Shown piece after piece: positions 7,955 through 56,704 of a stretch of DNA of 64,000 nt. This DNA is from Ginglymostoma cirratum (lineage: Eukaryota). Within the stretch, counting starts at the first letter, position 1. Each line of letters opens with the position of its first letter. A model generated the notes under the pieces. The model was given only the letters and a program-made list of their open reading frames with translations, did not search any database and was not told the DNA's origin. The stretch is taken from contig JAHRHZ010000274.1 of assembly GCA_024137785.1 (NCBI GenBank), forward strand, positions 15,098,387-15,162,386, given 5' to 3'. The translations under genes were made by a program, and so were the position numbers.

Positions 7955-9445
7955 ATGCTGGGGTCCAACACAGGCAAGGTGCCAAAGGATTAGAGCTCTG
8001 CAAACATTGTACCTTTATTCAAAAAGAACGTGAACGATAGGCCAAATAATTATAGGTCAATCAATCTGACCTCAGAGATAGGCAATTTGCTAGAATCAAT
8101 ATTGAGATATAAGATTAACTGTCCTTTGCAAAGGTATGGATTAATCAAGGATAGCCAGCAGAGTTTTGTTAAAAAATAAAATCAATTGAATTTTTTTGAG
8201 AATGCAGCCAGGAGATTTGAGGAGGGTAGGGCAGTAAATGTTATCAACATGGATTTTAGTAAGGCATTTGACAAGGTCTCACATGGCAGACTGGTCAGAA
8301 ATATAAAGCTCATGGAATTCGGGGGAATGTGGTGAGTTGGATCCAAAATCGGCACAGTGAAAGGAAACAAAGGGTAATGGTTGACAGATGATTTTGTTAA
8401 TTGAAGGTGGTTTCTACTGATGTTCAGTGTTGCATCCCTCACTGTTTGTGGGGTATGTTAATGATTTAGACTTAAATGAGGGAGGCATAATTGGGAAATT
8501 TTCAGTCAACACAAAACTTGGCCGGGCAGAGGTAATGAAGAGAACGACCATTGACTGCAAGATGATATGCATCTAGAGAGGGTGAACAAATTAAGAGAAT
8601 GGATAATAAGCAGGAGAGTATTGAGAGGGTAGAAGAAGTGAGAAACCTCAAAGTATGTTCTCGGGCCCCTGAAGGTGGAAAGGCAGGTGGATGAGGTGGT
8701 AGAGAAGGCATATGGAATGACGTCCTTCATTGAGTGACGTACTGAATACTAAATCAGGGATGTAATGCTGGAACTAAAGGTACTGATTAGGCCATGGCTG
8801 GAGTTTTATGTACAGTCTGGTTACCACATTACAGGAAGGATATTATTGAGTGTACAGAGGAGATGTACAAGAATGTTTCCAGGGCTTGAAAATTGCAGCT
8901 CTGGGCAAATGTTGGATTGGTTAGAGTTATTTTCCTTGGAATAGCGGGTACGGAGGGGTGACATAATTGAGGTGTACAAAATAACAAGGCAACATAAAAA
9001 CCAAAAGAGCTGCGGATGCTGTAAATCAGGAACAAAAACAAAGTCGCTGGAAAAGTTCAGCAGGTCTGGCAGCATCTGTGGAGGAGAAAACAGTTAACGT
9101 TTTGGGTTTGGTGACCCTTCCTCAGAACAAAATAACAAGGCACTTGGACAGTATGGACAGGAAAGACCCATTTCCTGTTGCAGGGAGGTCAATTACCAGG
9201 GAAACTGGTAGAGGATTAGAGGGGACATGAGGAAAGGTTTTTTTTTCAACTCAGAGGGATGGGTGTCTATGTTTCACTACCCAGTTTGTTGGAAACTTTC
9301 AACTCTCTTCAGAGGAATCTTAATCCACACAAGAATTATAACCTGCATAGTTATGGGCAAAGTCCTGGAAAGTGAGACTAAAATGGGCAGCTCGCAGAAA
9401 AGCAACATGCTGAGTGACCACTGTTTTACATTGGAACTTTTCAAT
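7955..9445 (+). mobile_element. CR1 LINE RT-to-3' fragment, decayed, interrupted by a PLE
   Basis: ANIVPLFKKN..NYRSINLTS (~8000-8075), MDFSKAFDKVSH (~8249-8284), then CR1 C-terminal motifs through ~9300. Confidence 0.88.
8992..9126 (-). mobile_element. Short PLE 3'-end insertion with 16-bp TSD
   Basis: Homologous to 2281-2405; flanked by acaaaataacaaggca at 8976-8991 and 9127-9142. Confidence 0.9.
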
Positions 9446-9744
9446 AGATCTAACACACATGCTGCCTGCTAGCTTAAACATCAAGGCTGGAGTTTCCTGA
9501 ATTATACCAATTCAGAAAAAAAAATATGAAGTTTACTGCTTTTGTGCTGACCTTGCTAATGGGAACTGACATCAAAGTTTCCTGTAGAGTTTATTAGATG
9601 ATGTAAAAGGAATACCAGGGAGTCCACTACTCCACCTTCCCCTCCAACATCACTTTTTTGCTATCTGTGCTACTCCTCTACCATCAGACAGGACCTTTTC
9701 ACTGAGAAGGTCATTCCGGCAGCTTAGGCACTTTTTTGTTTGTT

Positions 9745-10128
9745 TCTTCTTTCACAGGATGTGGATTTTGCCCCAAGCCCACATTTGATATGCACTCATA
9801 AATACACTTGAACTGAATGGCTTGCTAGGCCATTTCAGAGGACTGTTAGGAATCAAACTCATAGCCATGGGTTAGGAGTTATATGTAAGCCTGACCAGTA
9901 CCGGAATGCATTTTTATTTTTCTTCCCTAAAGAAAAATAGTGAACCAGATGCATTTTTACACCAATTGACAATGGGTTCTAGGCAACTATTAAATTAGAT
10001 TCTCATTTTTAATTCCAGATTTATTAATTAAGTTTATATTTCACTATCTGCCATGGTGAGATCTGAACCAAATGCCCAGACCATTAGTTTGGGTCTCCAG
10101 AGCCAATGACTATGCCATTGCTTTCCCT
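9745..10128 (-). mobile_element. Older copy of tRNA SINE family 2
   Basis: Shares tagtgaaccagatg, ttaattccagat and cactatctgccatggtgagat with 4771-5684. Confidence 0.65.
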
Positions 10129-10159
10129 TGAATGAGTAAGGAAGGGACACATTCAGAAT

Positions 10160-10521
10160 TGAAATAACTCCAAGTCACCAAGTCACCAAGTCACCAAGTC
10201 ACCAAGTCACCAAGTCACCAAGTCACCAAGTCACCAAGTCACCAAGTCACCAAGTCACCAAGTCACCAAGTCACCAAGTCACCNNNNNNNNNNAGTCACC
10301 AAGTCACCAAGTCACCAAGTCACCAAGTCACCAAGTCACCTTTTACTTACATGTGGGGAGTCCTTGATACTGATCCAACTTTCTCAGAGTGAGCAGAACC
10401 TCTGACACTCCTGTTTATATCTGTCAGCCAGGGCTCCCTGATTGGACTAGATTCAACTGCCCCAATCAGGGAATCTATATTCTATGGGGTCCACCTGGCT
10501 GACTGTGTTATAATCACTACA
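10160..10521 (-). mobile_element. Solo LTR with internal tandem expansion
   Basis: Minus strand starts TGTAGTGA and ends TATTTCA (TG..CA). Flanks agaat (10155-10159) and ggaat (10522-10526) form a 5-bp TSD with one mismatch. Paired CCAAT boxes at 10436-10471, TATA-like ATATAAA at 10414-10420 and polyA-like AGTAAA at ~10342-10347. Confidence 0.72.
10170..10340. repeat. Perfect 8-bp tandem repeat (caagtcac)n containing a 10-N gap
   Basis: Directly visible, about 20 units; Ns at 10284-10293. Confidence 0.97.
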
Positions 10522-11904
10522 GGAATATTTAAGGTGCACTAGGGCTGGCACCATTTTGATTTTAAAAAAAGCATAAGCATCGGTGCCTCTTTTTAAAAAA
10601 TCATGATTAAAATAATTACCAATCTCCAGAAATCTCAGTTGTGCCAATAGAAAAGTGATTTTGGGCAATGGGTTTGCATACAAGAGCCACACTAATACAT
10701 TATTCAGGGAAATGTGAGATACTCCTGCAAGTTATCTGGCACAGTGAGATAACCTTATTTAAATGAGGATCAGAGCATTTAGCCGGACCCATCTCACAAG
10801 TGGTGGACTAAACGATGAAAATTCTGGTGGCTCAACTATTCACCCTAAACCCAGCTCTTATCAATGATGTGCAAATGTTTTCAAAGATAAAATAGCGCAA
10901 CCGTATTCTTTGTTGTAGTTACATGAAATTCTCCAGGAAATACCCAACCTGCATATCAGCTGTCCTGAAACTTGCTCTTGTGTACAAGTATACCCACCGC
11001 AGTCCAATTCTGGCCACACCCGTTGTGATGCACATTCCCTTTCCGTCGTGAGCCAAGTGATCCGAATGAGAATTTTCTTCCCAGTGCTTTATCCCTATGG
11101 GCATCATGATTGAGATCAGCTAACTCAGCACATGTACCAAATTCATGCCATTGAAGGAACAACAAAGGTAATGGTTTGTTTTCCCAAAATCAAATCAGAT
11201 TACTGCAAATTGTGTTACGCCCGTTTAATGTCCAAGATTCAACACAGGAAGGTACAATTTAGGAAAACAATTTTTTTCTGAAAATTATTGCACAGTCATA
11301 ACACGTCATAAGTCACTTCTTCTGTAAAGCCCCATATACGGATAGGTATGCGTTAAGATAATTTACACTACAATTATTTTGTACATTGCTGTTCTTTGTT
11401 CCATCTTGCCCCTGCCTTGAACTGTTCTAGTTATGACAAGCTTAAGAAGGGAAGTCTGTGTAAAAACGCAACTGCTAACTTCTAACCTGGGAGACAAAGA
11501 AGATTGTGCGATGCAATTGTTGTTGGAAACTGCTCAACAATTTCATATGAAATTCCTAAAGTGGCCAGATTAAGTGCTCTGTTACAATAACAGAGGAATA
11601 TCCACCGAGAGTGCTAAATGTTCAAATGCTAAAATATTCATCACGTGATTTGGAGGGTGAAAAAAACCCTTTATATGAGAAAGAATTTGACTCAAATCAA
11701 CACTGAAGTCAAACAGCAAGATTGAAAACTGAATCTGTGCAGGGAGAGATAGGCAAATAAATAGATTTCAGAAATGTGACACTACATAGCCACAAAGATG
11801 ACTTTGCGCTTTATGAACTCTTATACTTTCTTATATGGAACGTTAATGCGCATAGATATTATGAAAAAAGTATGTGGTGACTGCTGTATCTTGTAATACT
11901 GGAG

Positions 11905-12615: not shown

Positions 12616-13039
12616 GGTAGGAGTTTTATTTCCTTGTCCAACATTTTTACCAAAACAGGATCTGAATTTAAGGTTAACAAAAAACAGTGTTTTGGCTAAA
12701 AGCTAGTTTCAAATGTTGCATGAAGAGTTTCTTTCTGCAAGGCCTGGTGAAATCTTACCAAACTCATCTCATTAACGTCTCCTCCTCAACCACCATAGTG
12801 TCACTGTCATCTGATTCTTGCTCCATTGTACCTGTTGCTATGTATGGAACAACTCCCTACAGCATATCCTAGAATAGATTGGCATTCTTAGCACCAGTGC
12901 CAACTTTCAAAGATCTTTCTGCACCTGCGCAAGCAATGTTAGAATGAGCTGCCATGCACGGTTCCTGATCTTTGCCCTGAACATGGAAAAGAAAGGAAAA
13001 TTGGCACTCTGCTTTGTCGGCAACAACTGGACGATCCTG

Positions 13040-13190: not shown

Positions 13191-15754
13191 CACCCTCTAA
13201 TACAACACATTCATTCTATCTCTGCTCAGCAGTACCACCTCCCTAAGGTTCATGCTCTACTACTCTCACTATTGATTGCTGACACCACTCCTACCCATGA
13301 CACCACTAATCTTGCACACCCTTCTGCCTCCTCACTTCCACCAGCAGTAACAGCTCTGTCACCCACTTTCATTATCCTTAATACCTGCCTATCTCTCATT
13401 CTACGAGGGCACAAAGAATCAAGATGGGTGGTGGGCTGGCCAACATCTTGCTCCCCACTGCTTTTGAGGAGAGCATTTGAATTCTCACTGTCCCGGTTGG
13501 CTGATTGACCGTGTCCAAGACCCTGGACTGGTATTGGAGGTTACTCCTTACTCACTTACTGTGTCAGAGCTCCCTGACCAGAGGTTACTTCCCTTAAAGT
13601 TACTGGGGACTGACAACCATATCCAGCTTCCCAGCTTTATGACTGTGCTAAGATGCAAGGCAGTACAGTATTATTGTGAGCCTGGTATATAAGGCTGAGG
13701 GTTGGGGTGCAAAAAGATATCGCAAAGCAGGCATGTTACGAGCACCAAGGTAGCTTACTGGTGAGTGAGACTGAGAGACCAAGCAAACAGGCTATGAATA
13801 CAGTCTGTTCTGTCCACAAGCTGGGTCTGAGTCCCTAAGTGCACAATGTCCTTGCTGCAGCATTACAATGAATGCTGCCAATATACCCCAAGGTTTAGAA
13901 TTGAAGTGCTATAAATGGATTAAAGATGTGCCATGATGCTGGCACATGTCAGATGCCAATATCCATAGAAGTGAGGTGCGTGCGCCCTGTGCACATGGAG
14001 CTTGCCCTGAGATATTGGCGCCTGGTGTCCAACGTGGAGGTTCTTTGGAGCAAGTGGCAAGCTGATGTTGATGGGTATCTGCTCTGACTTCCATGACGAG
14101 AATAAGATCAGTGGGAAGGTTAAAAACCTGATTATTAGTATGGCCAGATATGCAGCTGATAAGGTCATTAACAAGCAATAATTCCTATCAATAGGCAACT
14201 TGCTGCTACCTAGTCAGAATCTCGCTTTGGTACCGCACCGCAGTTAAAAGATGCAGCAAATTGTTCCCAACATCAGGACAGGCTTTGCTGCACTTCTCGC
14301 AAAATTCTGCCAAATTTCTTGCTGTAGCTCACATCATTCAGGCTCTTATGAGATTCCGCTCAGTGTCTCAGCAAAATATGCAAAATGACATTCAGGGTTC
14401 CTAGATGGAAGTGAACTTGATGAGTTCGTATCACTGGCAATCTGTTTTCTTATCGCTTTGCCTTTGTTTGAGTTTCTGGGAATGTTGCCATCACATCTTC
14501 TCCAAGCATTTCAGGCACAAAGGATGGATTTTCCATATTTCTTTGTGTTTTGGAAGTGGGAAATGATAAAACAATCTAGTCAAGTGTAACTGAGATGTTA
14601 GTATCTCAAAACAATAAAATATTGGCAGAGACACAGAACTGTTTGTCAAAGCATCAATGTCTCCTGAGTCTTCACTTCACCTAAGAAGCCATTATTGGAT
14701 AATGACACATGCCATAAGCGGACCGCAACTCATCTACAGTGACTTAAGATTTCAACGGCCCTGAATGTTTATGCAATGAAGTCATTCCAGGTTGTCACTT
14801 GATATCACAAATATCATTTGTTCAACTATACACTGATGTATTTTGCAATCACAGATGAATTGTTTACTGGACCTAGTAATTTCATCACATTCCATATGAC
14901 CAATCATTAGCAACATGATAGAGCACCATAAGTTTAGAAAATTACAGGATCCACTGGTCCAAAGAATCTAAGATTGCACCCACACAAGTTAAAACTCTCC
15001 TTTAATCAATAACTGCATCAATGTAACAAACTATCCCATTGTCTTAATACATTTCTGTGAGATGCTACATGCTTAGGTCAAACAACTAAACCAGTGCTCC
15101 TTGATGTAGAAAGACAAGTTTGATTCTTGAGAGAAAATAAGGTAATCCTCTGCAGAATATGGTTCACAGCATGCACATTATTCCAGGATACCTACTCAGC
15201 AATCTTGCATTGAGGTCCATGTGTGCACCAGAGTATTTAAGGAGCATGACATTGGATTATTGGAGGTACACCTTAAAGGACTGGATAAAATATAGTCCTG
15301 CATTTTCCCATAATGGTTAGGCACTGCCTGTTGCACAAGTATACCTTACAAAGGTAAGGTAAGAAGACCTAAAGGACAGCAAGAGGGAATTGATAAGGGA
15401 GCAGTAGCATCAGAAGATGTGGAGTTCTACATTTTGGCAGTCAGAGACCAGTCATTCGGTTTGACCCCCATGAATAACCACTGCAGTCACAGTCTTGTTT
15501 CCTTCATCCTCCTCCCTTCATAAATGTGCCATCATCAATGGATCATTCTTTAGTGCGCGGAAATTCATTACCCAAGGAAAATAAGTTCTAAATCTTTGCA
15601 TGAATAATATTTGCATCGTCAACAGCTTCAATGTAGCAACAATTTGAAAGAGAAACCACATTATGAACATACTTAGCATCTCTTACCACAGAACTTCCCC
15701 TTGCAGCCTGTTTCTCCTCAGTGCAACTGCAGGAGTAGGCAGGAAGTAGTCACT

Positions 15755-15850
15755 GAGATAACAAGGTGTAGAGCTGGGTGAACACAGCAGACCAAGCAGC
15801 ATCAGAGGAGCAGGAAGGCTGACGTTTGGGGCCTAGACCCTTCTTCTGAA
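15755..15850 (-). mobile_element. Young PLE terminal arm (family B) running into a 100-N gap
   Basis: gagataacaaggtgtagagctgggtgaacacagcagaccaagcagcatc..gacgtttggggcctagacccttctt is near-identical to the copies at 23911, 39613, 41045 and 55492; Ns at 15851-15950. Confidence 0.88.
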
Positions 15851-17299
15851 NNNNNNNNNNNNNNNNNNNNNNNNNNNNNNNNNNNNNNNNNNNNNNNNNN
15901 NNNNNNNNNNNNNNNNNNNNNNNNNNNNNNNNNNNNNNNNNNNNNNNNNNCAGATACAGACTAGTTCTACAAATCTTTTGCTGCCAGAGCCAACCTTGAG
16001 GGTGGGATGCAGGTTGGTGGGAATGCCACACAGAGTTGTCATCGTCCAAGTGCATTCTTGCCATGTCACTGGTTTAGAATGCCTACAGATCTGCAGATCT
16101 ACAGATAAGTGAAGTCCTGTAAATGCTTGCCTGCAGCCCAACCCTAATATTTTGGAGTCCAGAGAGACAGTTTTCTTCAATCTCGAACACCAGGCCTCAA
16201 CTGTAGGTGTCTAAATATCCACAGAGGAAGGAAAATTCCTTTGGAACCACTTTTATGATGCTCAAAGCTATAAGCGTTCCTAGAACTGTCACTTACTCCA
16301 TGGTACAGTGTAATTTAAACAGTTGCGTTGTTATACACTTGCTGCTGGTGGATTTATTCAATTGCAACAAGATTGTTGCATACTGTTAGGGATTGCCCTC
16401 GATGCCCACATCAATTATTGATGCTATTCAAGTATTGTTCTTCTTGAAACAAACCCCAAGAGACATAAATTGTCTTAATCTTCAGCCAAGGCACTATGCA
16501 ATTTCATAATCCAGACAGTGTTCTTTTAGTATTAACATTCCCAGCAGCTGCAATACCTCACCCATGTATTATCTAGTGCTTTCCCATCAGCCTCACTCTG
16601 TCAGTTCCCAGGGTTGGATGACCCTGAATTAGGGTTTGGGAAGGATATCATGTGATGGCGTGTGGTGTCAACTGTTGGGCACGCCAGATGTCCTGAGACC
16701 AGGTTCTGTGTCAGTCACATCTTGAGAAAAAAAAGAGGAAGTAAAGTTACGATGAGTTCCTGATGAGCAGGATTTGCATGTAGTTTGGAGAAGGAGTGTC
16801 ATAATTTCATGATGTGGTTTGCTGACAGTTAATCGGACATACCATAAAATAAGAACAAAGAAAAGCAGGTGCTACTCACAAATGCACAGTTGCACATTGC
16901 CTCCTGAACTCCTCTCTCTGCTAAATCTAATTACATCCTTCCCCAAATTCGGGGAACTAATGGGGGATGAGAGGTCAGAGGTTAAAGGGGGGCCATAATG
17001 GATGTGATGACAGGTGCGATTCCACAAACAATTATAATGACTTGCCAAGTGAAAGTACTTGAAGATATGAGTGAAGGCCACTAAGGCGAACGCAGGGAAT
17101 GTAAAAGCATTGCTTATCATATTGATTGGAAGCACTTCAATAAAGTGAAAGGGGGGTGCTTACAAAAATGGCATACTTGTTCATCTGTGCATTTCTATGT
17201 TTCACTCATACAAGCTGAGCTTGGAGCCTCTTACATTATTTGATCTAGTGAAGTCAGTACTGTAAAGCTCCTTCTGTACCACCTGGACATCAAACTTAT

Positions 17300-19716: not shown

Positions 19717-19960
19717 AGCAAGAACAAAAAACTGCAGATGCTGAAAATCAGGAACAAAAACAGAAAGAGCTGGAGAAATTCAGCAGGTCTGGCAGCATCT
19801 ATGGAGAGGAAGTAGAGTCAATGTTTCGGGTCCAATGACCCTTCTTCAGGACAGAAGATAGATCATCTGAAGAAAGGTTACTGAACCAAAAATGTTGACT
19901 CTACATTCTCTCCACAGGTGCTGCCAGACCTGCTGAGTTTGTCCAGTGGTTTATATTTTT
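19717..19960. mobile_element. Fold-back (hairpin) PLE-derived insertion, family A
   Basis: 19760-19849 and 19867-19960 are imperfect reverse complements separated by a ~17-nt loop. Degenerate TSD gattgaagttggga (19703-19716) / gattgaacctgaga (19961-19974). Confidence 0.88.
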
Positions 19961-20569
19961 GATTGAACCTGAGACTTCCCTGCTGTATGGAGGTCAATAC
20001 TGAACAAGGTGGTCCCTTATTCTACAAACTGTCTGGTGACAGTGAGCTTGGTCCCTTACTTACGAATTACAGTTTTATTTTAACTTATTCAAAAATTTCC
20101 TTTTGGGATTGTTGATGATAATCTTCATAAACTTCTTAACAAATGGATTACATTGAGTTGATGCTTCATTGACATTAGAAGGATGATAATCTCAAGCTTT
20201 CATGCCATAAACATTCTAGAAAACTAAATTCTGTTATTGACTCACCATTGTATATTCCTACGCAAGCTCTGCAGTGTGACTGTACTGCAGAGAAGTAATT
20301 GCTTGAAATGTCACTTTACATATTGTGACCTATTTGATATGGAAGGTTTTTGATACATTGGTTTCAGTCTTACCATTTTCAGACTGTAAGTGTCTCTGGT
20401 TCATTTCTCTTTGTTTCCCTGGTACAATAGTGGCTTTCTGATCTAAACAGGTCAGTTTTCAATTTCTGCTGCCTCACTGCTAGTGGCTAGCTAACTGGTA
20501 CAAGGCTGAATTCCCGTCATGCCAGGCAACATCTGGCTAGAGCATCATTTGCCTGCCTTTTAAATTAGA

Positions 20570-20862: not shown

Positions 20863-23343
20863 CCACCCTTGTTGTTTTAAGTACCCATCTCCCCCTAGAA
20901 ACCCATCGACAACATCACAACAGTCATTGGCATCAATTCTTTACCTAACTACAGCAGTGCAGGTCTAACACTAGTATTTTCTTGTTTAAGTGAAGCTGAC
21001 ACCACATTGCTCGGAGCAATTATACATGATGACAATGTGGGTTGTTTGTGATTTGGTTTCAAGCAAAGCCAAGAAATTTGGCTACTCTATTTAAAAGATA
21101 TAAAGAACGCCAATTTAATTTGAAAGCCAACAGACATCACATTGTGAAAATGCTAAACCATCTGTCCACTGTAGTAATTGGCAAGGCTTAATCTCACCTC
21201 TTGAGGTCCAGCAATTAACACCGCACTGAGGATTTTGTTTGGAGTCCTAGGTGATTAATGGGGGCAAACCGCATAATGAAATGATGAAAATCATCACAGA
21301 TCAGGTGTTACACCAGAATTTTTTTATCATAACATGACATGGTTGAGAGAGATACAAGGATGTTTAAAATCTCACTATTAATAAACCAGACTGTGTCTCC
21401 AAGGGAGTTTGTTCTCCAAAAGGTAAGCCTTACTCCTGAAAAAAAATTACTCAGATAAAATGTGAAATATATATGCGATTCAAAAATATTTTGCATATTG
21501 CAAAAGACAAAAATACAGTTCAAATGCACTTGGAGGTATATCGTTCCAGGTGTTGTTGGCATCAATATGTTCAAATGTGACATTTAAAGAGATCCTACAT
21601 GTATGAAGTTAGGATGAATGCAAATCCATTCATTTTAATCCGTAACACTTCTTTTGAATGGATGCTACACTGATTCAGAGTTGCACAGTTTCCAAATGGT
21701 TTTGGAACATTACACACATTTCCATCCAAAACTTTGGAAGGTGCAACATTTACTCTGAAAGTACACCATTTTCCTTTGTCTGTGAGACAAATGAGTATGT
21801 GACCACAAGCAGTGCTTTATTCAGAGCTTCTTTTTGCAATCTGTTCCTCCTTCCTATTGATGAAACTACCTTCCACATTTGCTATGGCTCTTTTCACAAA
21901 GAGACAGGGAAAATTGAGTGGCAAAAGCCAGGAAAAAAAAGCTATTTTCTAATTTACTAGTTTGCAATCCCTCAAGTCGTCCAGGCACTCTCAAAATCAT
22001 CTGAAGTGAGACTTCTCCATATCATGGCTCCTCCACAAGAAAATTACACCAAAATATATTGTGTTCAAAAACAAACTCTGTAGCATCTACAGGCTATGCA
22101 AGTTCATAACATTTAAGTAAAAAGGTAACCAAGCTGGAACCCTAATGCTACAAATAGTCAGACTCTGGGTATACAGTTTTCAATGCCCAAGCCATTCAGT
22201 CCTGTTTGCAATCGCAACACCTATTCGTTGATTTACTTTGTTTACATTTTGTGCTTCTGAAAGTTTGGAATAGACGTTTTGCAACCACTATTGCCTCACT
22301 AGAGGATATATCCTTAACCAGGCCCTAGAATTGCAGAAGCAAGGGGAGCTATAACAGAGTGAATGGGCCTGTTTGAGGCACAGTGGTGGTTTTCCTATCT
22401 TTGGGCCATAAAGCCTGAGTTTACATCCCACTACTACTAAAGGGCATTGTAACATTTCTGGACAGGTTCATTTACAAAAGTACAGGGCCAAGGCTGTAAG
22501 TGGAAAAACTATTCACTGCATTTTATTTATCACTGTAAAATACACGTGACAATAAAATCATAAAAACTAAGCAATGTATATCCCCCACATATACACTGGA
22601 TAATGACGGATGGGTGTCCCACAATGTTGCCGCTCAACAGGTCTTTGTATTTCTGGCACCTTCTTTTCTTTTCAAATTTCTGACCACATTTGAAATTAGA
22701 ATCTTCCTGGTCTGCGTAGCTTATTTGCCAAATACATTATGGACTTACCCATGACAGCTGAATTGGATCATCATACAGAATATTGCAATATCTAATCTTG
22801 CACGGGGAAAAATTTGGCTTACTCTTTGTGGTCTGCTTCAATACAATTTAAAAACAAAAATATTGCAGGCTGAAAAGGGGAAATTTAGGATCATTCTACA
22901 GAGATAACCTAAGGCCAAGTGGTCTTTCTTATTTGTAATTATCTTGTGATTTTGTAATGAAAGCGGTGTGCTTTTTTTTGAGGGTTTTTTTTTGTGTCTT
23001 TTTGAACCAACATGCTTATATTTAGGAAGTAAACATATTCAGTAAGTTAGACAAAATTAAGTAGAAAGCCTGTGGCTTCCCCTTCAATTCTTTGTCATTG
23101 TGTCATTAATAAGAACAATAATAAATAAAAGCCCATACCTGAAATGAACTCAGGGATGTTTATTTGTCTGCATTTTCCACTTTGTTTTATTACCCCTCTG
23201 CTACTATCTAGCACAAGGGGATAATTCTCTGAAAAAGAACAGCACTAAAGTGACAGAGATTTGCCAAAGGTATCCGTGCAGATGGTCATTGGACAGGATT
23301 AGTTTGTGATGGCGCCCATAATCAAGTAGCCAACCAAGATTCA

Positions 23344-23447
23344 CTAACAAAAACAGAGCTGCTGGAAAAGCTCAGCAGGTCTGGCAGCATCTGTGAAGGG
23401 AAAAACAGAATTAACGTTTCGGGTCCGGTGACCCTTCCTCAGAACTG
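23344..23447 (-). mobile_element. Short PLE 3'-end insertion with the best-preserved hammerhead-like motif
   Basis: Homologous to 2312-2409; possible 7-bp TSD agattca at 23337-23343 and 23448-23454. Confidence 0.88.
23409..23447 (-). ncRNA. Minimal type-I hammerhead-ribozyme-like motif
   Basis: Minus strand cAGUU-CUGAGGA-A-GGGUC(ACCG)GACCC-GAAA-CGUU-AAUU: core boxes CUGAnGA and GAAA, perfect 5-bp stem II, palindromic AACGUU stem III, and 4-bp stem I with one G-U pair. Activity is not demonstrated. Confidence 0.65.
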
Positions 23448-23910
23448 AGATTCAACCAACATTTACTGCCCAGGAATCAAATAAATGAAAAGTCCAACTA
23501 ACCCACTCAAGCTTTTGCCTCACAGCGGTTAAAAAAAATTTGAATCAAATAAAATTTTGAATAACCATATTTGGTAACACCTGTCCTGTTGTCGAGAAAT
23601 GTTGGTGAAAGGTCAAGAATTTTAACTTTATGTGCTACCAAGATTGACACGAATAAAAGGGCAGGGGTGAAAAATCGAGAAGTGACAGCTTGTTGATGAA
23701 AAGTTTGGTTATTTTAAAAAGCCTGAAGATCATAGGAAGTTAATTAGTGCTGTGGTGAGTGCTTTAAACTAAGTTGGCAAGGGAAGGTGAACTGGGTTAC
23801 AGTTAACAGAAGACAGACAAGATCCACAGAAAAGACAAGAAGCAGTGAAGAATATTACAGAAAGGACAGGAATTAGATGGATGAAGAAAACAAAGCTGGA
23901 TATTAGAATG

Positions 23911-24126
23911 AACACAGCTGGCCAAGCAGCATCAGAGGAACAGGAAGGCTGATGTTTCGGGCCTAGACCCTTCTTCAGAAATGGCACACAACCCAGTACC
24001 ATTTTGGGCCTTTCAGGCCCGAAACGTCAGCCTTCCTGCTCCTTTGATGCTGCTTGGCCTGCTGTGTTCATCCAGCTCTACATCTTGTTATCTCAGATTC
24101 TCCAGCATCTGCAGTTCCTACTATCT
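23911..24126. mobile_element. Fold-back PLE-derived insertion, family B, with 15-bp TSD
   Basis: 23911-23963 pairs with ~24015-24068; perfect direct repeat ctggatattagaatg at 23896-23910 and 24127-24141. Confidence 0.93.
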
Positions 24127-25213
24127 CTGGATATTAGAATGCAAATTAATGAGCACAATGGTACAAATCAGGTTGCTGAGCTGCGGGCACAAGTTACCAC
24201 ATGCGTTCTGAGATAGTCATTCTGACAGTGGCTCGGTATAAACATAAGCAGGGACGGGAGCTAAATATTTCTGGCTGCAACATGCTCAGGAGAGATAGGG
24301 AAGGAAAAATTGAAGCAGGAAAACTGAGGCGTAAAATCTTCCACAGCCCCTGAATGTCATAGGAAATGACAATAAAGTTGGGAAAGTCATGTGAGATGGC
24401 CAGAGAGCAGCTTCTCAACATCACAAGCATAAAGTTCCATTTGCCACATGAACAGCAATGCAAGATTCATTGCTGAAAGACGAGAGGCTTATTTGCAAGT
24501 ATCAGCACACATTGCCACCTCATTATCATCAAATCTTGCCTTGTTAATAGCATTATCGAATTCTCCCACCTACTGGATAGAAACAAGACAGTGACAATTC
24601 CTGACATGAATGCTGGGGTAGTTGCCTGGTGACTTCAACTCACTGCTTGCTTCTCGCAACCTCCATCATGGATCACATGGCAGGCACACAACCCAGACCA
24701 GGTCAATGGCATTCGACATATACCAGTCTCACCACACCCATCATGCCCCATCTCGGATCCACTTACAATAAATTTCTCTACTTCAGTGCTGCATGTTAGA
24801 ATGCACCAGCACCTTTAATTGTAATGCTGTTGCCAGTACACTGTGCACTGGGACAGGCACTCTTCTCATGGATTGGACCATGTTGCATCTCAGCTCTGTT
24901 GCTCACTCTCTTATTGCTCATTCACTTTGCGCCTACTCGGATGTTCACAGCATCCCTGCCTCACCTTGCCTTGCCTTGCTGTGCTTTGACACCTCAGCCA
25001 GCGTTTAAAGACTACCCGTAATTCTGCCTCGCCTTTAGCTTAGAGCAGGCGCAAACTGAGGCAGTTTTCTGTGGTTGTCAGCAGTATCAGTCAATGTGTT
25101 ATGTCAATTTCACACCAAAAGCATATGCAAACAGCCTGTGCAGCAAACTGCATGTGTATCAACCAAATAGCTACATCTCAAAGTCTAAGAGGAGTAGTCC
25201 TTAGTCAAATTCT

Positions 25214-38710: not shown

Positions 38711-39612
38711 TATTCCACATTTCTCTGTAAACTTTCTCCAAAATTATGGCATAAAACAAGGCAATCATTTTTCATCTCTTTTAGCACACTATCATGATGG
38801 TTAAGTGAATCTTTTGAACAACAATTCAAACCACAAAATACCAGTGCAATATTAACTATTTCACACCTGTTGGATAGGAATGCTGGAACATTCACCGTCT
38901 CATATCCTGATTCGACTAAAGGTCAGAATTGAGAAGTGCGGTCAGAGCTCCAGAAATGTCATCCTCTTCAATCTTACCAACTGAAAACAGCAACACTTTC
39001 AAAATGTCAAAGGTCAAGTAAAAATATGCCACTGATTATAGCATGCAAACCTTCCTCATGTGCCATCTGTTGCACATACCATTGACCCTGCTATCTGATT
39101 CTAATCCCAAATAAAGTAGTGTTATGAGGAAAAGTATGAATATTGAACTTACTTGGTTTGTAATTTGAACCTAGATTGGCGTATTTATGGGGGTTGAATG
39201 TTCATTTCATGCTACAATGTTCTTAGTCTTATAATTTATGGTCCCAAAAGAACTATGCTCACTAGGCTAATTTTTTGCCCACTCCACCAACACTACTAAA
39301 TGATTTAAGTGACACAATCACATGAAGAACATTAATGGAAATCAACATAGAGTTGATATTAATCCTCCTTATTACAATCAGCATTTGGATATTGCCACAT
39401 GCTAATACAAAAACTAGCAACTCAATAATACTAATTAACACAGGAACAATAATGTGATTTTAATGTACGTGGCTTCTTGAATGGTTCAGCTGTAAATAAG
39501 AGAGTGAACCACACAAATTGGGGTAGTCTCAGTTTCAAACTGAGACCCGTAAAAGGTGAGCTTATCCCAATAGTTGAGGTGCCGCAACTAGAAAAGGGCA
39601 AGATAGTTCCTG

Positions 39613-39698
39613 AGATAACAAGGTGTGGAGCTGGATGAACACAGCAGGCCAAGCAGCATCATAGGAGCAGGAAAGCTTGATGTTTCGGGCCTAGGCCC
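39613..39698 (-). mobile_element. Short PLE family-B insertion
   Basis: Near-identical to 55492-55565; possible 6-bp TSD ttcctg at 39607-39612 and 39699-39704; ends in the palindrome gggcctaggccc. Confidence 0.88.
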
Positions 39699-40630
39699 TT
39701 CCTGCTTTGATTATTATTGAGTTGCGTAGTGTGAAACTATAAGATGGCGCATGTCGAGGAAGCAAGGATTGAATGGGGATAAAAGGCTTCAGGTTTATGC
39801 TTGAAGTAGGATCTTGCATTTACGAATGTGTTTCACATTATCAAAAGGCCCAAAGTGCTCCACAGACAATGGATTACTTTTTGGGTAGTAATCCCAGTTG
39901 TTCTATCAGCAAAAGTAACAAATAATTTCCAGAGTAAAGACCAACATACTGCAAGTATTGCACTATTGCAATTACATGATGTCTAAAAAGGCTTACTGTA
40001 AGCGAAGCATAGTCACTTTTGCAATGTAGGAAACACAGCAGTGAATTTGCCTACAGCAAGGTCACACAAACAACAATGTGATAATGGATCATAATGCTGG
40101 ATTTACTTATAGATGTACTGAACTTTTAATTCTATTGGGTTTTACAAGAGGACATATAGCCAAAATATAACAGCAAATGTAAATTTAGTGACTGGCAGAG
40201 ACCTGAGAGCAAACATGGAACATCACACCTGAGGAGATGCCAAGGGAAATTCAAACAGCAACCCTTCAAACATAAATGTGAAATTCAAACCAAAGTTGAC
40301 TAATTGCCTCTGGTAGTAAAGATAATAAGAGGTCAACTATCTTTCTCAGCAGAAAGTCAACTCCTGTGGAACAAGACCCAAACCATAGACACGTCTGTGT
40401 TTTACCCTTCCAGGGACATACAAAAAAAATATAGAAACCAAATGCAAAGCCAGATCTGTGTGTGCTGTAATCTAGTGTGGACTGATGTACTGTGAGGTTC
40501 ACTGCCTGAGGACAGCCGTTAGACAAACGGGTGCTGCAATTATTTATTCACTCTCTTGCTCTCTCACTCTGACTACTGGAAGCTAGACAAGCCAGTGAAA
40601 CCCTGTCAAAAAGGAAATATGGCAAAAGCT

Positions 40631-40728
40631 TGAGATAACATCATGTGGGGCTGGAGGAACACAGCAGGCTGGGGAGCATCAGGGGGGCCGGAAAGTTGAA
40701 TATCAGGTCAGGACCCTTCTTCAGAAAA
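40631..40728 (-). mobile_element. Older PLE family-B terminal fragment
   Basis: gagataacatcatgtggggctggaggaacacagcagg..caggacccttcttcagaaa. Confidence 0.8.
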
Positions 40729-40817: not shown

Positions 40818-41723
40818 GGGGAGGCGAGGGCCTAGTGATATTATTGCTGGACTGTTAAACCAGACATCCAGATAATGTTCTGGGGACCTGGGTTTGAAAC
40901 CCACCATAGGCAGACTGTGAAATTTGAAGTCAATAAAAAATATCTGGAATTAAGAATCTAATGATAACCATGAATCCATTGTCGAATTTTGGAAAAATTC
41001 ATCTGGTTCACTAATGTCCTATAAGAAAAGAAAGCACCATCCTTGATAACAAGGTGTAGAGCTGGATGAACACAGCAGGCCAAGCAGTATCNNNNNNNNN
41101 NNNNNNNNNNNNNNNNNNNNNNNNNNNNNNNNNNNNNNNNNNNNNNNNNNNNNNNNNNNNNNNNNNNNNNNNNNNNNNNNNNNNNNNNNNNNNNNNNNNN
41201 NNNNNNNNNNNNNNNNNNNNNNNNNNNNNNNNNNNNNNNNNNNNNNNNNNNNNNNNNNNNNNNNNNNNNNNNNNNNNNNNNNNNNNNNNNNNNNNNNNNN
41301 NNNNNNNNNNNNNNNNNNNNNNNNNNNNNNNNNNNNNNNNNNNNNNNNNNNNNNNNNNNNNNNNNNNNNNNNNNNNNNNNNNNNNNNNNNNNNNNNNNNN
41401 NNNNNNNNNNNNNNNNNNNNNNNNNNNNNNNNNNNNNNNNNNNNNNNNNNNNNNNNNNNNNNNNNNNNNNNNNNNNNNNNNNNNNNNNNNNGATACTGCT
41501 TGGCCTGCTGTGTTCATCCAGCTCTACACCTTGTTATCTCAGATTCTCCAGCATCTGCAGTTCCTACTACCTCTGAAGCACCATCCTTACCTGTTCTGGC
41601 CTACATGTGACTCCAGACCCACAGCAACGTGGTTGACTCTGAATTGCTCTCTGGGCAGTTAAGGATGGTCAATAAATGCTGCCTAGCAGCGATGCCCTCG
41701 TCCTCTTAATAAGAAAAGAAAAA
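40818..41723 (+). mobile_element. tRNA SINE family 2, full length, interrupted by a PLE hairpin
   Basis: Head ggggaggcgaGGGCCTAGTGAta..GGGTTTGAAACCC; the body continues seamlessly across the TSD; A-rich end. Confidence 0.85.
41045..41575. mobile_element. Fold-back PLE family-B insertion with 13-bp TSD and a central 400-N gap
   Basis: 41045-41091 is the exact reverse complement of 41492-41538; aagcaccatcctt at 41032-41044 and 41576-41588; Ns at 41092-41491. Confidence 0.9.
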
Positions 41724-41744
41724 TAAATCAACTTAATGGCTGCA

Positions 41745-46172: not shown

Positions 46173-46205
46173 CTGGGCATGTCAAAGCATACTGAAATAT
46201 GATTT

Positions 46206-46619
46206 ATAACATAGTGTGGAGCTGGAGGAACACAGCAGGCCAAGCAGCATCAGATGAGCAGGAAAGTTGACATTTCAGGTCAGGACCCTTCTTCAGAAAT
46301 GGGCAGGAGGAAGGGAGTTCAGAAATAAATAGAGGATAGGTGGGGCAGGGGAAGGTAGGTGGGATTGTGATAGGTGAGTGCAGGGAGGGAATGGTGGGCA
46401 TTGATCAGTGAGATGAGAGGGGCAGATAGATGGAAGAGAAGATGGACAGGTTGTGTCAGATCAAGGAGGCAGGGATGAGAGGGAGCGTTGGTCATGGGAT
46501 GAGGCTGGGGGGTGGGGAGATTTTGAAACTGGTACAGCCTACATTTAGGCCATTGGGCTGTAGACTCCTGAGGCAGAATAGGACGTCTCTGTCTCCAGCA
46601 TCTGCAATTCTTACTGTTT
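46206..46619 (-). mobile_element. PLE family-B 3' fragment with inverted terminal ~30 nt and 14-bp TSD
   Basis: Minus strand encodes the ORF C-terminus FCLRSLQPNGLNVGCTSFK (~46523-46580), then the 3'UTR. 46592-46619 is the element tip in the opposite orientation. TSD ctgaaatatgattt (46192-46205) / ctgaaatgtgattt (46620-46633). Confidence 0.88.
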
Positions 46620-46633
46620 CTGAAATGTGATTT

Positions 46634-47528: not shown

Positions 47529-47574
47529 TGTTAGGAAATCTCACCTGAGGTCTGGGTGTAGTTAAAACTACATG

Positions 47575-50900: not shown

Positions 50901-53440
50901 TTTTTTAAGCACCTCACTAACTCTTAGGATGGAGCAGACAGTTTTGATTGGAGACAGACAGGTTCTGAATCTAATTTTATCAGGTTCCTCTGAGGCCTCC
51001 TATAAGAAACACATGTGATTAACTAAAGTAGCACCCCCACCCAGATGGTTATTGGATATAACTGCACCACGTAGTAAGAAGTGAGGGATATAGTTCAGGA
51101 ATCTCAATAGTGGAAACTCCTGATAATCCTGCAGGCACCCTCAGGATGGGCACAGAAAAGGAAGGGGGGACAGGGGTCGGTTGTGGAAGGGAGGAAATAA
51201 GCTGAGGTTCTCTCTCCTGATTATTACCCAAAAACCTCTACAGGGTGCTATGAGAGGGTCATGTGAATTAACTCCAGTGTCAAACAATCCATTGATGCTC
51301 TGATATTCTTTTCCAGTGTTATAAAGAAGTAGCATTTAGGCAGAGAGCTCATAGTCTTCTGGATTCGGGATGACATAATTTACCTGCTGAACTATCAGAG
51401 AAGTAAAAGAGAAATAAACTATCAAAGAACTATCTGCTCAGCGGCATCACCAAGAGTGTGGCCATCGTTGGTCCAGCACCTGAAAGAAAAGGTTGTCCGG
51501 ACCAGGTCAGGCAAGCACAGGGAGAAAGGGGTTGGTGAGGGTAAGGAGTACTACTGCTGCAGGGGTGGCCATTGTTGTTGGGTAGACCATGGACTGCCTG
51601 AGTGAAAAAAAACCCTCCCCCCACCATCGAGCCTGCAGTGAGATCACCAGGTTTTTACCTGGCATTCACCCAATGTGGCAGAGGTCTCACCCACTGCTGT
51701 TAAAATGCCAGTGATGGCAGAAGAGACTCTTAATTGTCCTTTATGTCAGAGGGCATCCACATTTTCTGCTGCTAGCAAGATGGCATGGTAGGAGTAGGAT
51801 GACAAGTGCTTCACCACTAACCCTGCCACCTTCCCTCCCAACCCACTCCCTACCATCAACACCTTTCCCCCATGATTTTACAGGCTGTCCTCCTTACTTC
51901 CTAATCGATTCCTTTAGAGTCAGTAACACCTAGCCCTTACATTCTTGTTAAGTTAAACTAAATTAAATCCCATGTGGCTAACATTCCCACCTCTGTTGGT
52001 CACCTTTGCCACTGAGCTGCTGTGAATTGTACCTGTTCTCAAAATCATTAGCTGTTATTTCAGCATTTATCAGAATGCAGAAGAGTAGATTGCTGCTGTG
52101 TTTGTGGCAAAACAACGTGCAATTCTTTTTCAAGGCAGTCAATGTACTTTGCCTTTGTGATTTTTTGACTAATCCTGGCAGTAGCAGAAGTATAATCCCT
52201 GTGCTACCCAGCAAGAGATAACTATCAAGTGTTCTGTGGTTGCCCAGGTTCCTCCTCATTGTCAACTGTACGATTCAGGTCAAATGCTGTGATTGAGCTC
52301 AACCCTTGTGTACAATCAGAACCAGCAAGATTAAAGTAAAGAAACTACCTTCCTCTTTCGCAAGGTCTTTTTTTAAACCATGAATTAACTTGCTTTCTTC
52401 ATCTCTGTTCTGTCATTTTTGAAATGTTTGTGTGTGTGGGTTTGTTATGATTCACATGTGTGCATGTGAACCTGTTTGCACGTGCAATGCTTCTCTGCCT
52501 CCTCCACTCCTGATGGTCACCCCCACACACAGACCCAGCAACCAACCCATACATATGCAAAATTAAAGGATACCTCTGCTCTAATTATGGTTTTGGCTAC
52601 CCTGAATGGTCATCGATCATCACAAGTAGTATGTGTGTCCAGCTGAGCGTCGCTGCTGGTGTAGAGTATTGCAGGAAGCTCATCTGGGTCTGTGAAGATG
52701 AGTGCAAATTATAGTGAGAGCAATAGATCTTTTAGAGTGAATAGTAACACAGGGATTTACTCAGGGTTTGAGTTCAATTCATAAGCCTGACAAACGAGCC
52801 CCAAGTTTAAAACATTCTCTGGCATCTATTATTGTTGTAGGTTACACCCTGCATAAGCTAAAACCAAAGCCTGAGAAATACTAAACTTTCAGTCAATAAA
52901 TATTTTTTTTTTTTTACTTACTATGGATTCATATGATTTACAGAAAGAGTTCCTTTACATTCCAAATCCCCTTGTCTCTGTTAATTCTTGTTGGAGTTAG
53001 GGTTTGTAGATGCTAGCTGCCATGTATGACATTGATAGTAATAGGCCATGCACCATTCTGCTATGGAATAAAATTCTTGCTATTTCTCCTATTTCCTAGC
53101 TCACAAAGGAAAAACTAACTCAGGAAATATAGAATATTGAACTAGGAAACCTTTCATTTAGGTGACTCAATTACAACATCAGATAGTGTCAGGAAGTACC
53201 AGAGATATGTGATTTGACCGCAATACAATCACTGATGGCCACCATCTTGGAGATCAAGATCCTGCTCCTCCTCTCTTGTCACCCCTTGTTCCTCCTCACG
53301 AGGTGTCCTGCAACTGAATGTCCTTAAACTCACAGACTACATGCTCCAGGATAAGTGGCTGCATTGGTACTTGCAAGTGTTTGTGAAAGGGAGACTCAGT
53401 ATGCTGTGAGGCACTTTACCTCAGTGGTAGTACTAACCAG

Positions 53441-54402
53441 CATAGAGTCATAGAGATGTACACCACAGAAACAGACCCTTCAGTCCAACTCGTCCATGCC
53501 GACCAGATATCCCAAATAAATCTAGTTCCATTTGCTGGCATTTGGCCCACAGCTCTCTAAACCCTTCCTATTCATGTACCCATCCAGATGCCTTTTAAAT
53601 GTTATAATTGTACCAGCCTCCGCCACTTCCTCAGGCAGCCCATTCCATACACACACCGCCCTCTGCATGAGAAAAGTGACCTAAGGGGCAACTTTAAATC
53701 TTTCCCCTCTCACCTTAAACCTATGCCTTCTTGTTTTGGACTCACACACACCAGGGAAAAGACGTTCTCTGTTTAACCTATCCATGCCTCTCTTGATTTT
53801 ATAATCCTCACCCCTCAGCCTCCGATGCTCCAGGAAATATAGCCCCAGCCTATTCATCCTGTCCCTATTGCTCAAACCTTCCAATCCCAGAAACATCCTT
53901 GTAAATCTTTACTGAACCCTTTCAAGTTTCACAACGTCCTTCCCATAGCAGGGAGACCAGAATTGCATGCAGTATTCCAGACGTGGTCTAACCAATCTCC
54001 TGTACAGCTGCAACATGACCTCCCAACTCCTATACTCAATGCACTGACCAATAAAGGTGAGCATACCATACGCTGCCTTCACTATCCTGTCTACCTGGAA
54101 CTCCACTTTCGAGGAACTATGAACTTGCACTCCAAGGTCTCTTTGTTCAGCAACACTCCCTAGGACCTTACCATTAAGTATATTAGTCCCACCCTGGTTT
54201 GCCTTACCAAAATGCAGCACCTCACATTTATCTAAATTAAACTCCATCTGCCACTCCTTGGGCCATTGGCCCATCTGATCAAGATCCCATTGTACTCTGA
54301 GGTAATCTTCTTCACTGTGCACTACAACCCAATTTTGGTGTCATCTGCAAACTTACCAGCCATATTTCCTCGGTTCACATCCAAATTATTTGTACAAATG
54401 AC
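53441..54402 (-). mobile_element. CR1 LINE 3' fragment (~1 kb) including the RT FADD motif
   Basis: Minus strand GKFADDTKIG (~54328-54357), WQMEFNLDKCEVLHFG..ERDLGVQV-like and LVRPRLEYCMQFWSP; (ctctatga)n tail. Confidence 0.95.
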
Positions 54403-54694
54403 GTGTCCAAGAAAGGGGACAGTATTAGAATGCTGGCTCCAATGATAACTTTCAATGCAAATTCTGTTTGAAAGCATAACTGTAGCTCTCTGCATGACCT
54501 ATGTGAGATAGTAGGTGAAAGAGAACCAGACATTAATTACCCTCAGCTTAGAAGAAGCCTGTGGTTTACCCTCCACACTCCTTTGGTTCAGAAGAGCCGA
54601 CTCCTGCTTTTAGGCAATCCTCAGAACAAGGCCCAAGGGTCAACTTTGTAAAGCCCAGTAGATTAGCACCAGCCAAACATCTGTTCAAAGTCCA

Positions 54695-54817
54695 CATCCA
54701 GGATTGGCCATGCTAAATGTTTAGCCATGGGGCAGTGGATCTTGGTGGGCTGCTCTTCGAGGGTCAGTGTGGACTTGATGGGCCAAATGCCCTGCTTCAT
54801 CACTGTAGTGATTCTAA
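54695..54817 (+). mobile_element. HE1 SINE 3' fragment
   Basis: ggattggccatgctaaat..gggtcagtgtggacttgatgggccaaatg..ctgtagtgattcta. Confidence 0.7.
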
Positions 54818-55463
54818 ACTGTATCTTCTGTTCAAATCCAGCATTATGTCAATCCTGTTTTTATGATAAACTGGACACCTGCATATTGGTAACAATGACT
54901 CAGAGGCCTTTCTAATGAATTATCTTAAATCTTAGGTCTCTGGCTGGCAGATTAAATGCTAGTGGGAAGGACAAAGCAAAGTGTGTATCATCAAGAAACA
55001 TTAATGCTTCATGAAAGTCAGTAAATTAAACAACTCTGGTCTACACATTTCCCCAAAACTGAAGGGACATAGTAAACACCTGATTGGTTCACAATTTACT
55101 AACATGAAAATGCATAACAATTGATTTTTTTTCATTTGTTTCACAAATTAAGTAATCTGCTTTGACATAACTGTGGAAAATTCTAAGGCCTTCACCAAAA
55201 GAAAGAGCTCAGGTTCAAGCATGAATTTGGAGAGATGAAGATGGTCGAGTTGAAAAACTGAGTTAAGATGAGGCATTTGCAAGATCGAAGTGTAACAATG
55301 TCGCTGGTTTGAAAAGAGAAATAATGTGGCTTTCATGGCCTCAGGTTGACCAAAGCACTTTTTAGTCAATTAGTGTTTCCTACTGCTATAACATAGGAAA
55401 CGGCACCAACAATGTTGTGCATGGCAAAAGCCAATGAGCAGGAATGAGATTAATGACCTGATA

Positions 55464-56067
55464 TAATAGGTACTGCAGATGCTGGAGAAACCGAGATAAC
55501 AAGGTGTGGAGCTGGATAAACACAGCAGGCCAAGCAGCATCATAGGAGCAGGAAAGCTTGACGTTNNNNNNNNNNNNNNNNNNNNNNNNNNNNNNNNNNN
55601 NNNNNNNNNNNNNNNNNNNNNNNNNNNNNNNNNNNNNNNNNNNNNNNNNNNNNNNNNNNNNNNNNNNNNNNNNNNNNNNNNNNNNNNNNNNNNNNNNNNN
55701 NNNNNNNNNNNNNNNNNNNNNNNNNNNNNNNNNNNNNNNNNNNNNNNNNNNNNNNNNNNNNNNNNNNNNNNNNNNNNNNNNNNNNNNNNNNNNNNNNNNN
55801 NNNNNNNNNNNNNNNNNNNNNNNNNNNNNNNNNNNNNNNNNNNNNNNNNNNNNNNNNNNNNNNNNNNNNNNNNNNNNNNNNNNNNNNNNNNNNNNNNNNN
55901 NNNNNNNNNNNNNNNNNNNNNNNNNNNNNNNNNNNNNNNNNNNNNNNNNNNNNNNNNNNNNNNNNGGGCCTAGAAGAAGGGTCTAGGCCCGAAACGTCAA
56001 GCTTTCCTGCTCCTATGATGCTGCTTGGCCTGCTGTGTTCATCCAGCTCCACACCTTGTTATCTCTC
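55464..56067. mobile_element. Fold-back PLE family-B insertion with 15-bp TSD and a central 400-N gap, inside a minus-strand Deu-SINE remnant (~55320-56230)
   Basis: 55492-55565 is a near-perfect reverse complement of ~55993-56065; attaatgacctgata at 55449-55463 and 56068-56082; Ns at 55566-55965. Confidence 0.92.
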
Positions 56068-56571
56068 ATTAATGACCTGATAATCTGTTTTAGTGATGTT
56101 AGTTGAGGGGTAAATCTTGCAGTGCACATTAACAAAACACTTCGTTGAACTGTATCCTGAGATTGTTTCCATTGTCTGAGCAGACAGAAAGGGTGATCCC
56201 ATTCCAGGAATTTCCACTGCCACATTCACTGAATATATTTTGTTTCTTCTTTTTAAAGTAATTGATTTAATTCCTTCATTTCTTGTACAATGAATTATGC
56301 TCAATCTGCTCACAAGATTCGTGTTCACAACAAAACCTTTCAACCCCAAGGCAGTTCTGAGGCAAAGAAAGGTCCAATAGCTACGTTATGGAGATTTCAA
56401 AACCTTCACTCTTCTAGTTCTTTTTTTAAATATTGTACTTATCCCAATCACTGACTTGGGAATCAGCAGGTTTAGCTGTTTGGGTAGCTAAGTCTTAGAG
56501 ACGAGCAAAGCCAAGGATTTGATATGTGCTGAGACAGAGACAAGAGAATTAGATAGCTTTAATATCTCTAG

Positions 56572-56704
56572 AAGAGCAAATTACTGCAGATGCTGGAATC
56601 TGTACTGAAAACAAAAAGTGGTGGAAATCACAGCAGGTCAGGCAGCATCCATGGAGAGACACCAACCTAATGATCAGAGTCTAGATGAGCCTTCATCAGA
56701 GCTG
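56572..56704 (-). mobile_element. PLE terminal fragment, third subfamily
   Basis: actgcagatgctggaatctgtactgaaaacaaaaagtggtggaaatcacagcaggtcaggcagcatccatggagag..ccttcatcagagctg; carries CTGATGA on the minus strand. Confidence 0.78.

Follow-up and report, generated by a model that had tools for sequence, protein, structure and literature searches.

Within a 64,000-nt stretch of the Ginglymostoma cirratum genome (assembly GCA_024137785.1, contig JAHRHZ010000274.1, 15,098,387–15,162,386; the window, at its full length), short copies of Penelope-like elements (PLEs) begin almost at the core of a hammerhead-like ribozyme motif, and the question is what places their 5′ ends there. An earlier reading of the window from its sequence, here called the original prediction, held that this boundary was not random and was not set by self-cleavage, and offered either a separate non-autonomous RNA unit or a stall of the reverse transcriptase (RT) as its cause. 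Copies are numbered from C3 of the CUGAnGA core (position 0), minus values lying in front of the core. Analysis of a genome sample revealed a pile-up of breakpoints 1–6 nt before the core, and the boundary is most probably the transcription start of a capped RNA, at which RT runs off its template.

The 4.36 Gb genome was sampled as 140 stretches of 10 kb, of which 31 were entirely unreadable, giving 1,038,301 readable bases (1.04 Mb). Eighty stretches lay at or adjoined arbitrary places and 60 lay 5–15 kb from earlier matches, with copy length ignored. The queries were the tip only, downstream of the predicted cut site, and each of the 338 matches was aligned to real long copies; 20 whose alignment missed the tip, 23 with an N or a stretch end at the breakpoint and 14 duplicates were removed, which left 281. 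The core was reached by 140 copies, 82 of which ended at −6 to −1, where the upstream rate predicts 3.2 in 6 nt; the others ended at −12 to −7 (7), −329 to −13 (32) or beyond −330 (19). The breakpoint rate was 0.12 per nt in the main peak, approximately 0.02 inside the ribozyme (0 to +12) and 0.003 upstream. Plotting breakpoints against the core therefore bore out the claim of a non-random boundary, and the pile-up is real. It was present in arbitrary stretches (40/79) and in stretches near earlier matches (45/71; duplicates still included in both counts), and also in young copies whose likeness to a long reference was 90% or more (26/57), which excluded a divergent 3′ untranslated region (UTR) as its cause. 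Solo copies had the same boundary in 50 of 185 cases. Exact core patterns for families B and A were found 25,408 and 5,589 times genome-wide; by eye, 32/100 and 78/100 respectively of the matches listed ended at 0 to −7, the first letter of the pattern slightly favouring long copies. The density of 0.33 arms per kb in the sample may correspond to about 1 million arms genome-wide if the sample is representative.

The window contained 19 arms belonging to four related subfamilies (A–D). Fifteen were free of gaps: five ended at −6 to −1, five more within 15 nt of the core, two deeper inside (+22 and +90) and three were long. Four were cut by N gaps (15850, 41091, 41492 and 55565), so that their ends could not be placed. 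Target duplications accompanied 7 of the 13 window insertions. The features were as follows.

1023–1117, plus strand: family A short copy that starts inside the ribozyme (+22).
2282–2600, minus strand: family A inverted long arm to −193, tailed, core C3 at 2403.
3049–4647, plus strand: family A long arm with a decayed RT end, CX4CxxC linker, GIY-YIG remnants and 3′ UTR; mutated core at 4556, the arm reaching more than 330 nt in front of it.
2264–2276 and 4641–4653: 13-bp target duplication round the 2282–2600 and 3049–4647 arms.
8994–9128, minus strand: family A run-off copy, 5′ end at −3, tailed.
8976–8991 and 9127–9142: 16-bp duplication of the 8994–9128 copy.
15753–15850, minus strand: family B arm to −2 at an N gap, end hidden.
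19726–19861, minus strand: family A fold-back, left arm, tailed, to −12.
19866–19961, plus strand: family A fold-back, right arm, no tail, from −1.
23346–23448, minus strand: family A run-off copy, 5′ end at −6.
23331–23345 and 23453–23467: duplication of the 23346–23448 copy, 13/15 alike.
23908–23984, minus strand: family B fold-back, left arm to −6.
24015–24131, plus strand: family B fold-back, right arm from +14, tailed.
23896–23912 and 24127–24143: duplication round both arms of 23908–24131.
39612–39701, minus strand: family B short copy to +5, just beyond palindromic stem II.
40633–40727, minus strand: family D run-off copy, 5′ end at −3.
41045–41575, no single strand: family B fold-back with an N-gap centre; arms 41045–41091 (untailed) and 41492–41575 (tailed).
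41032–41044 and 41576–41588: 13-bp duplication of the 41045–41575 fold-back.
46206–46586, minus strand: family D long arm that reaches −292, C3 of its core at 46296, with an initiator-like CCATTTC (minus strand; A at 46300).
46325–46331, minus strand: TATA-like box TATTTAT at −35 to −29, about 31 nt before the putative start; candidate promoter element.
46592–46622, plus strand: tail-only inverted arm.
46192–46205 and 46620–46633: duplication round the 46206–46586 long arm and the tail-only arm.
55457–56066, no single strand: family B fold-back with an N gap; left arm 55457–55565 tailed, right arm 55973–56066 from +2, untailed.
55449–55463 and 56068–56082: 15-bp duplication of the 55457–56066 fold-back.
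56575–56714, minus strand: family C short copy ending outside the peak, at −15; C3 of its core at 56699.

Most of the stops listed in the original prediction agreed with these coordinates, namely 9128 (−3), 23448 (−6), 23984 (−6), 40727 (−3) and 39701 (+5). The copy at 56.7 kb, however, reaches 56714 (−15) and not −5, and the hairpin at 19.85 kb has arms that end at 19861 (−12) and 19866 (−1). Three long arms had been left out of that list (2282–2600, to −193; 46206–46586, to −292; 3049–4647, beyond 330). Assembly gaps stand at hairpin centres (15851–15950, 41092–41491 and 55566–55965), and some hairpins elsewhere are duplicated across a gap (loci L086 and L184); assemblies therefore undercount and distort these junctions. 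Additionally, the window contains a further decayed PLE fragment of an open reading frame (ORF) at 59190–59936 (minus strand, approximately 67% like 3049–3793) and, at 10170–10340, a tandem array of an 8-bp unit that includes a 10-N gap.

On the evidence of their motifs and layout, the elements are Neptune-type Penelope-like retrotransposons with an endonuclease (EN+ PLEs). They showed a single ORF with RT plus a GIY-YIG domain at its C terminus, a partial-tandem pseudo-long terminal repeat (pLTR), an inverted 5′ copy and an optional tail. A 697-aa open stretch in the young copy at L184 matched RVT_1 (E 8e-6) and GIY-YIG (E 2e-4), narrowly missing the Pfam cut-off in each case; this frame carried the DKG motif as ADKGG, and CIRC within GIY-YIG together with two later His residues made up CCHH. 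The CX4CxxC linker between RT and EN read CNRRKCYTC in L184 and CNHQRCNTC in the window, where two ORF fragments had no match in Pfam and were identified by motif instead. The accessible text of PMC8557442 reports the CX2–5CxxC linker of the Neptune clade in Nematis too. The window pair 2282–2600 (minus) and 3049–4647 (plus) has the arrangement of a classic Penelope-like insertion. Often a copy of one subfamily directly adjoins the tip of a copy from another subfamily (L129, L122, L143, L160, L166 and L069), which hints at insertion into or beside older PLE ends.

At loci with an ORF start, the order was 3′ UTR, core, tip (~+93), tail (to ~+128) and ORF, with the first ATG near the long ORF at ~+167. 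The core of one young family B variant (L273:1203–1250) itself contains an ATG, 7 nt from the putative cap, with which an upstream frame of 14 codons begins. Long copies were continuous from the tip over 1.5 kb into the ORF, and the DNA of the repeat therefore does not start at the core. The explanation that the pLTR simply begins there thus fails for the DNA, but the element RNA most likely does begin there.

The sequence features of a minimal type I hammerhead (CUGAnGA, stem II, GAAA-CG-UH and a short stem I) were present at the PLE ends, as had been predicted; an Rfam scan gave no match to the hammerhead model, and the predicted folds were weak (−7 to −12 kcal/mol). Stem I varied among families and the boundary was constant. 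Only 10 of 281 breakpoints lay at the predicted cut site (+28 to +31), with no clear peak there in the genome sample, so self-cleavage does not set the boundary, in agreement with the original prediction. Young family B copies gave 0.015 breakpoints per nt at +28 to +31 against ~0.004 beside it; as this amounted to approximately three independent copies after duplicate removal, a cut-site peak in young B was considered unproven. Three young fold-back arms start exactly at the predicted cut site (L184:3189, L185:6922 and L192:6117), and a minor class with a cleaved template is possible.

What lies at the boundary resembles a promoter. Compared with the consensus TATA and initiator motifs, long copies carried TATAAA at −33 (family A) or TATTTAT at −35 (B and D), and CA at −5/−4 within an initiator-like YYANWYY whose A is at −4. 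Majority-letter frequencies in long copies of B, D and A (n = 32, 40 and 40) were 0.99, 0.96 and 0.91 at −35 to −28 and 0.99, 0.96 and 0.96 at −6 to −1, against 0.90, 0.92 and 0.84 further upstream; in family C a single long copy passed the filter. Thirty loci bore ORF-bearing copies, of which 11 reached the core; three of these 11 started at −6, −6 and −4, the last being preceded by G.

An untemplated G is known as a cap mark from L1 and SVA insertions (PMC3287187, accessible part), and it gave the most incisive test of the boundary. By eye, among the matches listed (100 per pattern), G preceded A(−4) in 45 of 86 family B copies, 14 long point-change rows being excluded (22.7 expected, p 3e-7), in 32 of 57–59 once fold-back and duplication rows were set aside, and in 10 of 14 family A copies (3.7 expected, p 5e-4); before C(−5), it was found in 39 of 90 family B copies (23.7 expected). 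As controls, G stood at 1 of 27 breakpoints at +12 in the same kind of tally and at 15 of 67 internal breakpoints (19 expected). A T before −3 (18/24) was rejected as a non-templated base, the long copies having a four-T variant. A splice acceptor at −2 was also rejected: AG occurs there in A and C and is absent from B and D, many A copies retain −5 to −3, and no common upstream exon was found.

Two raw-read RNA runs were aligned to element loci, the polyA run looking unstranded. Two joints onto −5 had an intervening G (50 and 5 reads), and read depth rose approximately eightfold at the core, equally on both strands. The element reads derive from copies within host transcripts. A discrete short RNA was not seen in the two runs, although such libraries would miss a 100-nt RNA. 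In run X18, a non-standard library, ~600 reads lay at L273:1230–1284, apparently from one host RNA with a divergent short copy.

The short copies are best explained as target-primed insertions of the first 100–135 bases of the element RNA. In the proposed mechanism, a Pol II promoter in the upstream pLTR would start this RNA at −4, and in some cases at −5; RT would bind the leader, initiate inside the RNA at +93 or +128, traverse the uncut ribozyme, reach the cap, often copy it as C and stop, leaving a cDNA of 100–135 nt. With an RNA that starts at −4 and priming at +93/+128, the short copies would be cap run-off products. Both nicked target strands would be extended, one from each start site, and end-to-end joining of the two run-off cDNAs, accompanied by short overlaps, filler or trimming, would produce hairpins. 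For long copies, RT would have been primed at these two sites in the 3′ repeat, and promoter-bearing tandems may be rebuilt from read-through RNA, by strand transfer within the repeat or from circles.

The 3′ ends of copies clustered at ~+93 and ~+128. Fold-back arms numbered 103 of 281, and 41 resolved fold-backs comprised 38 tail plus tip pairs, 3 tip plus tip and none tail plus tail. Target duplications measured 10–19 bp and were found, in a narrow search, in 19 of 75 short solo copies (1% in controls); in three window cases a single duplication enclosed both fold-back arms. One tailed and one untailed arm within one enclosing duplication fit two priming events, one per target strand and start site. 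Some arms meet at −4 or −5 with a palindrome of two or four bases at the join, and short restarts and filler are also present. Such joins fit end joining with trimming, which would account for the smaller breakpoint excess inside the ribozyme. Junctions with short tandem restarts of the first 7–10 bases (also at L079:1906–2082 and L038:133–285) resemble repeated RT jumps or the templated insertions that end joining leaves. L184:5545–8104 was rejected as a full-length element; it is a short run-off copy (−3 to +93) joined head to tail to a 5′-truncated long copy within one target duplication, as if RT had restarted at the tip site on its own cDNA end.

An unlikely alternative keeps the same start and changes the template: the short copies would be made in trans from short non-coding RNAs of promoter-bearing truncated copies, or belong to a mini-element lineage. 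Most young copies do keep the TATA-like box, initiator, ribozyme and tip without the ORF start, ~67/100 family B rows among the matches listed run past −14, which makes such RNAs plausible, and older A-like short copies have no close long relative in the sample. The family A tree also clusters the short copies (12 changes against 21.7 in shuffles), but the A long rows were chosen by likeness to one query and the clustering is therefore not a fair test. Against this reading, short and long copies of B and D were intermixed on their tree, some being identical, with 26 label changes where shuffling gave 24.5 (415 of the 500 shuffles were as low; 75 rows, few columns and weak branch support). Short copies also lacked the TATA-like box, 52 short solo copies had no common upstream flank, and the RNA runs, within their limits, contained no discrete RNA. 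The mixing of B and D and the lack of a common flank leave the separate non-autonomous unit of the original prediction unsupported; no SINE-like separate lineage emerged in B and D.

The other cause put forward in the original prediction, that RT stalls or template-switches at the hammerhead fold, is quite improbable as the main one. The raised breakpoint rate at 0 to +12 relative to upstream and some junctions in palindromic stem II (window 39701 and some +12 rows) would suit it, and stalling may account for part of these minor junctions. The main peak, however, stands at the 5′ edge, beyond the structure. Since RT moves from the tip to the core, the entire fold is already behind it at the stop, and the boundary is not mainly a stall. 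The weakness of the predicted folds, the variation of stem I among families at a fixed boundary and the cap-like G confined to −4/−5, which stalling does not predict, argue likewise.

A cut in the new DNA by the GIY-YIG endonuclease or by repair at the AT-rich site just before the core appears highly improbable: the anole enzyme shows a preference for ATT within its own pLTR (PMC11167929) and families B and D have ATTT at −4 to −1, but A and C have AGTT and AGCT there with the same boundary, the site is intact in many long copies and the extra G is left unexplained. Self-priming of hairpins on an antisense template, with the boundary as fold-back point (a hypothesis in the accessible part of PMC3846280), is disfavoured and scarcely credible here since, common as palindromes are at junctions, solo copies share the boundary and, in 38 of 41 pairs, just one arm has the tail, the arms often differing in length as well, which copying of arm from arm would not produce.

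Several observations weigh against cap run-off itself. Half of the copies (141/281) end at or inside the core, and the boundary is scattered over −6 to −1 with its commonest point at −3 rather than −4. Eight of the 11 core-reaching ORF-bearing copies extend past the putative start, which requires an extra step. The G excess was weak in our own sample (7/13 at −4, 3/16 at −5) and in pooled sample copies of at least 85% identity (6/18, 4.8 expected), family A had none at −5 (2/11), and the strong counts are those tallied by eye among the matches listed, some of which are both strands of one hairpin. The two aligned read runs listed no pile-up of RNA starts, and 84–96% of aligned reads continue into unlike sequence. 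Finally, PAc, the anole element for which priming has been reconstituted, belongs to Poseidon and not Neptune.

The element type, the hammerhead, the inverted arms and the one-sided tail are already published. The accessible text on the Neptune clade (PMC8557442) describes, as here, a single ORF with DKG, RT, a CX4CxxC linker and, at the C terminus, GIY-YIG with CCHH, together with partial tandems, an inverted 5′ copy and a 30–40-bp tail at one end; it describes frequent 5′ truncation, and that text contains no fixed ribozyme-edge breakpoint or cap mark. In Anolis carolinensis PAc, RT starts inside the RNA at two neighbouring sites, by which the tail is delimited, both target strands are extended and uncut RNA is the main template (PMC11167929). 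The two internal starts resemble those here, in another clade; the PAc ORF starts in stem II, unlike the first long-ORF ATG near +167 here, and that study maps where RT starts, not where it ends.

Metazoan PLE hammerheads (PMC4209133, accessible part) likewise have CUGAnGA, an extra base before stem II, a palindromic stem III and thousands of solo motifs. Cleavage and circles as template are proposed there, whereas here the peak, lying at −4 instead of at the cut site (+28), speaks for a linear, uncut RNA template. The available portions of PMC3846280, PMC2377424 and PMC8557442 place transcription starts inside the pLTR in D. virilis and Chlamydomonas (the latter two papers), note a TATA box and initiator in the Adineta vaga Pen2a pLTR, as in the long copies here (PMC3846280), and describe inverted pLTRs with target duplication for Pen2a and D. 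virilis Penelope, again as here (PMC3846280, PMC2377424). The D. virilis element differs in that its internal promoter has no TATA box and that helix I is preceded by a 75-bp intron (PMC2377424), its mapped start lying 46 nt plus an intron upstream, and rotifer palindromes were read as antisense self-priming (PMC3846280), unlike our reading. Non-LTR retrozymes (10.64898/2026.07.22.740005, accessible part) are also PLE-derived with a type I hammerhead but form head-to-tail arrays, whereas the copies here are solo or head-to-head and dispersed; no head-to-tail hammerhead arrays were found in the window and sample, no dedicated whole-genome tandem search having been made.

This mechanistic variant was not found in print: no ribozyme-edge breakpoint peak, cap mark or run-off model was found in a search that left subscription papers, Repbase notes and supplementary figures outside its scope. 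Retroviral minus-strand strong-stop DNA is primed near the RNA 5′ end and runs off at the cap. The proposal here is alike, except that the primer is nicked target DNA and not tRNA, so that the product is integrated as it stands. The cap G of L1 and SVA insertions (PMC3287187, accessible part) offers a further likeness. A bolder and tentative extension, possible but doubtful, is strong-stop replication: a dimeric RT-endonuclease would prime both strands at two leader sites and run off the cap, only transfer to the 3′ repeat would give long or promoter-bearing tandem copies, hairpins and stubs (several hundred thousand) would be failed intermediates, and the pLTR would be a U3-R-like unit in a target-primed element.

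These copies bear on how PLEs are copied, what their hammerhead does and how their inverted and tandem ends arise, one element having been reconstituted in vitro. In tens of thousands of exact copies, the genome of G. cirratum records where RT stops, together with a likely cap mark and a strict rule of one tail per hairpin. This supports the view that these copies were templated by sense RNA that was capped and uncut, argues against circles or antisense self-priming for them, and names a start site, a promoter and two priming sites as targets for mutation. For annotators, the stubs would be by-products rather than members of a new SINE or MITE family. If true, run-off would leave a readable record of how PLEs are copied.

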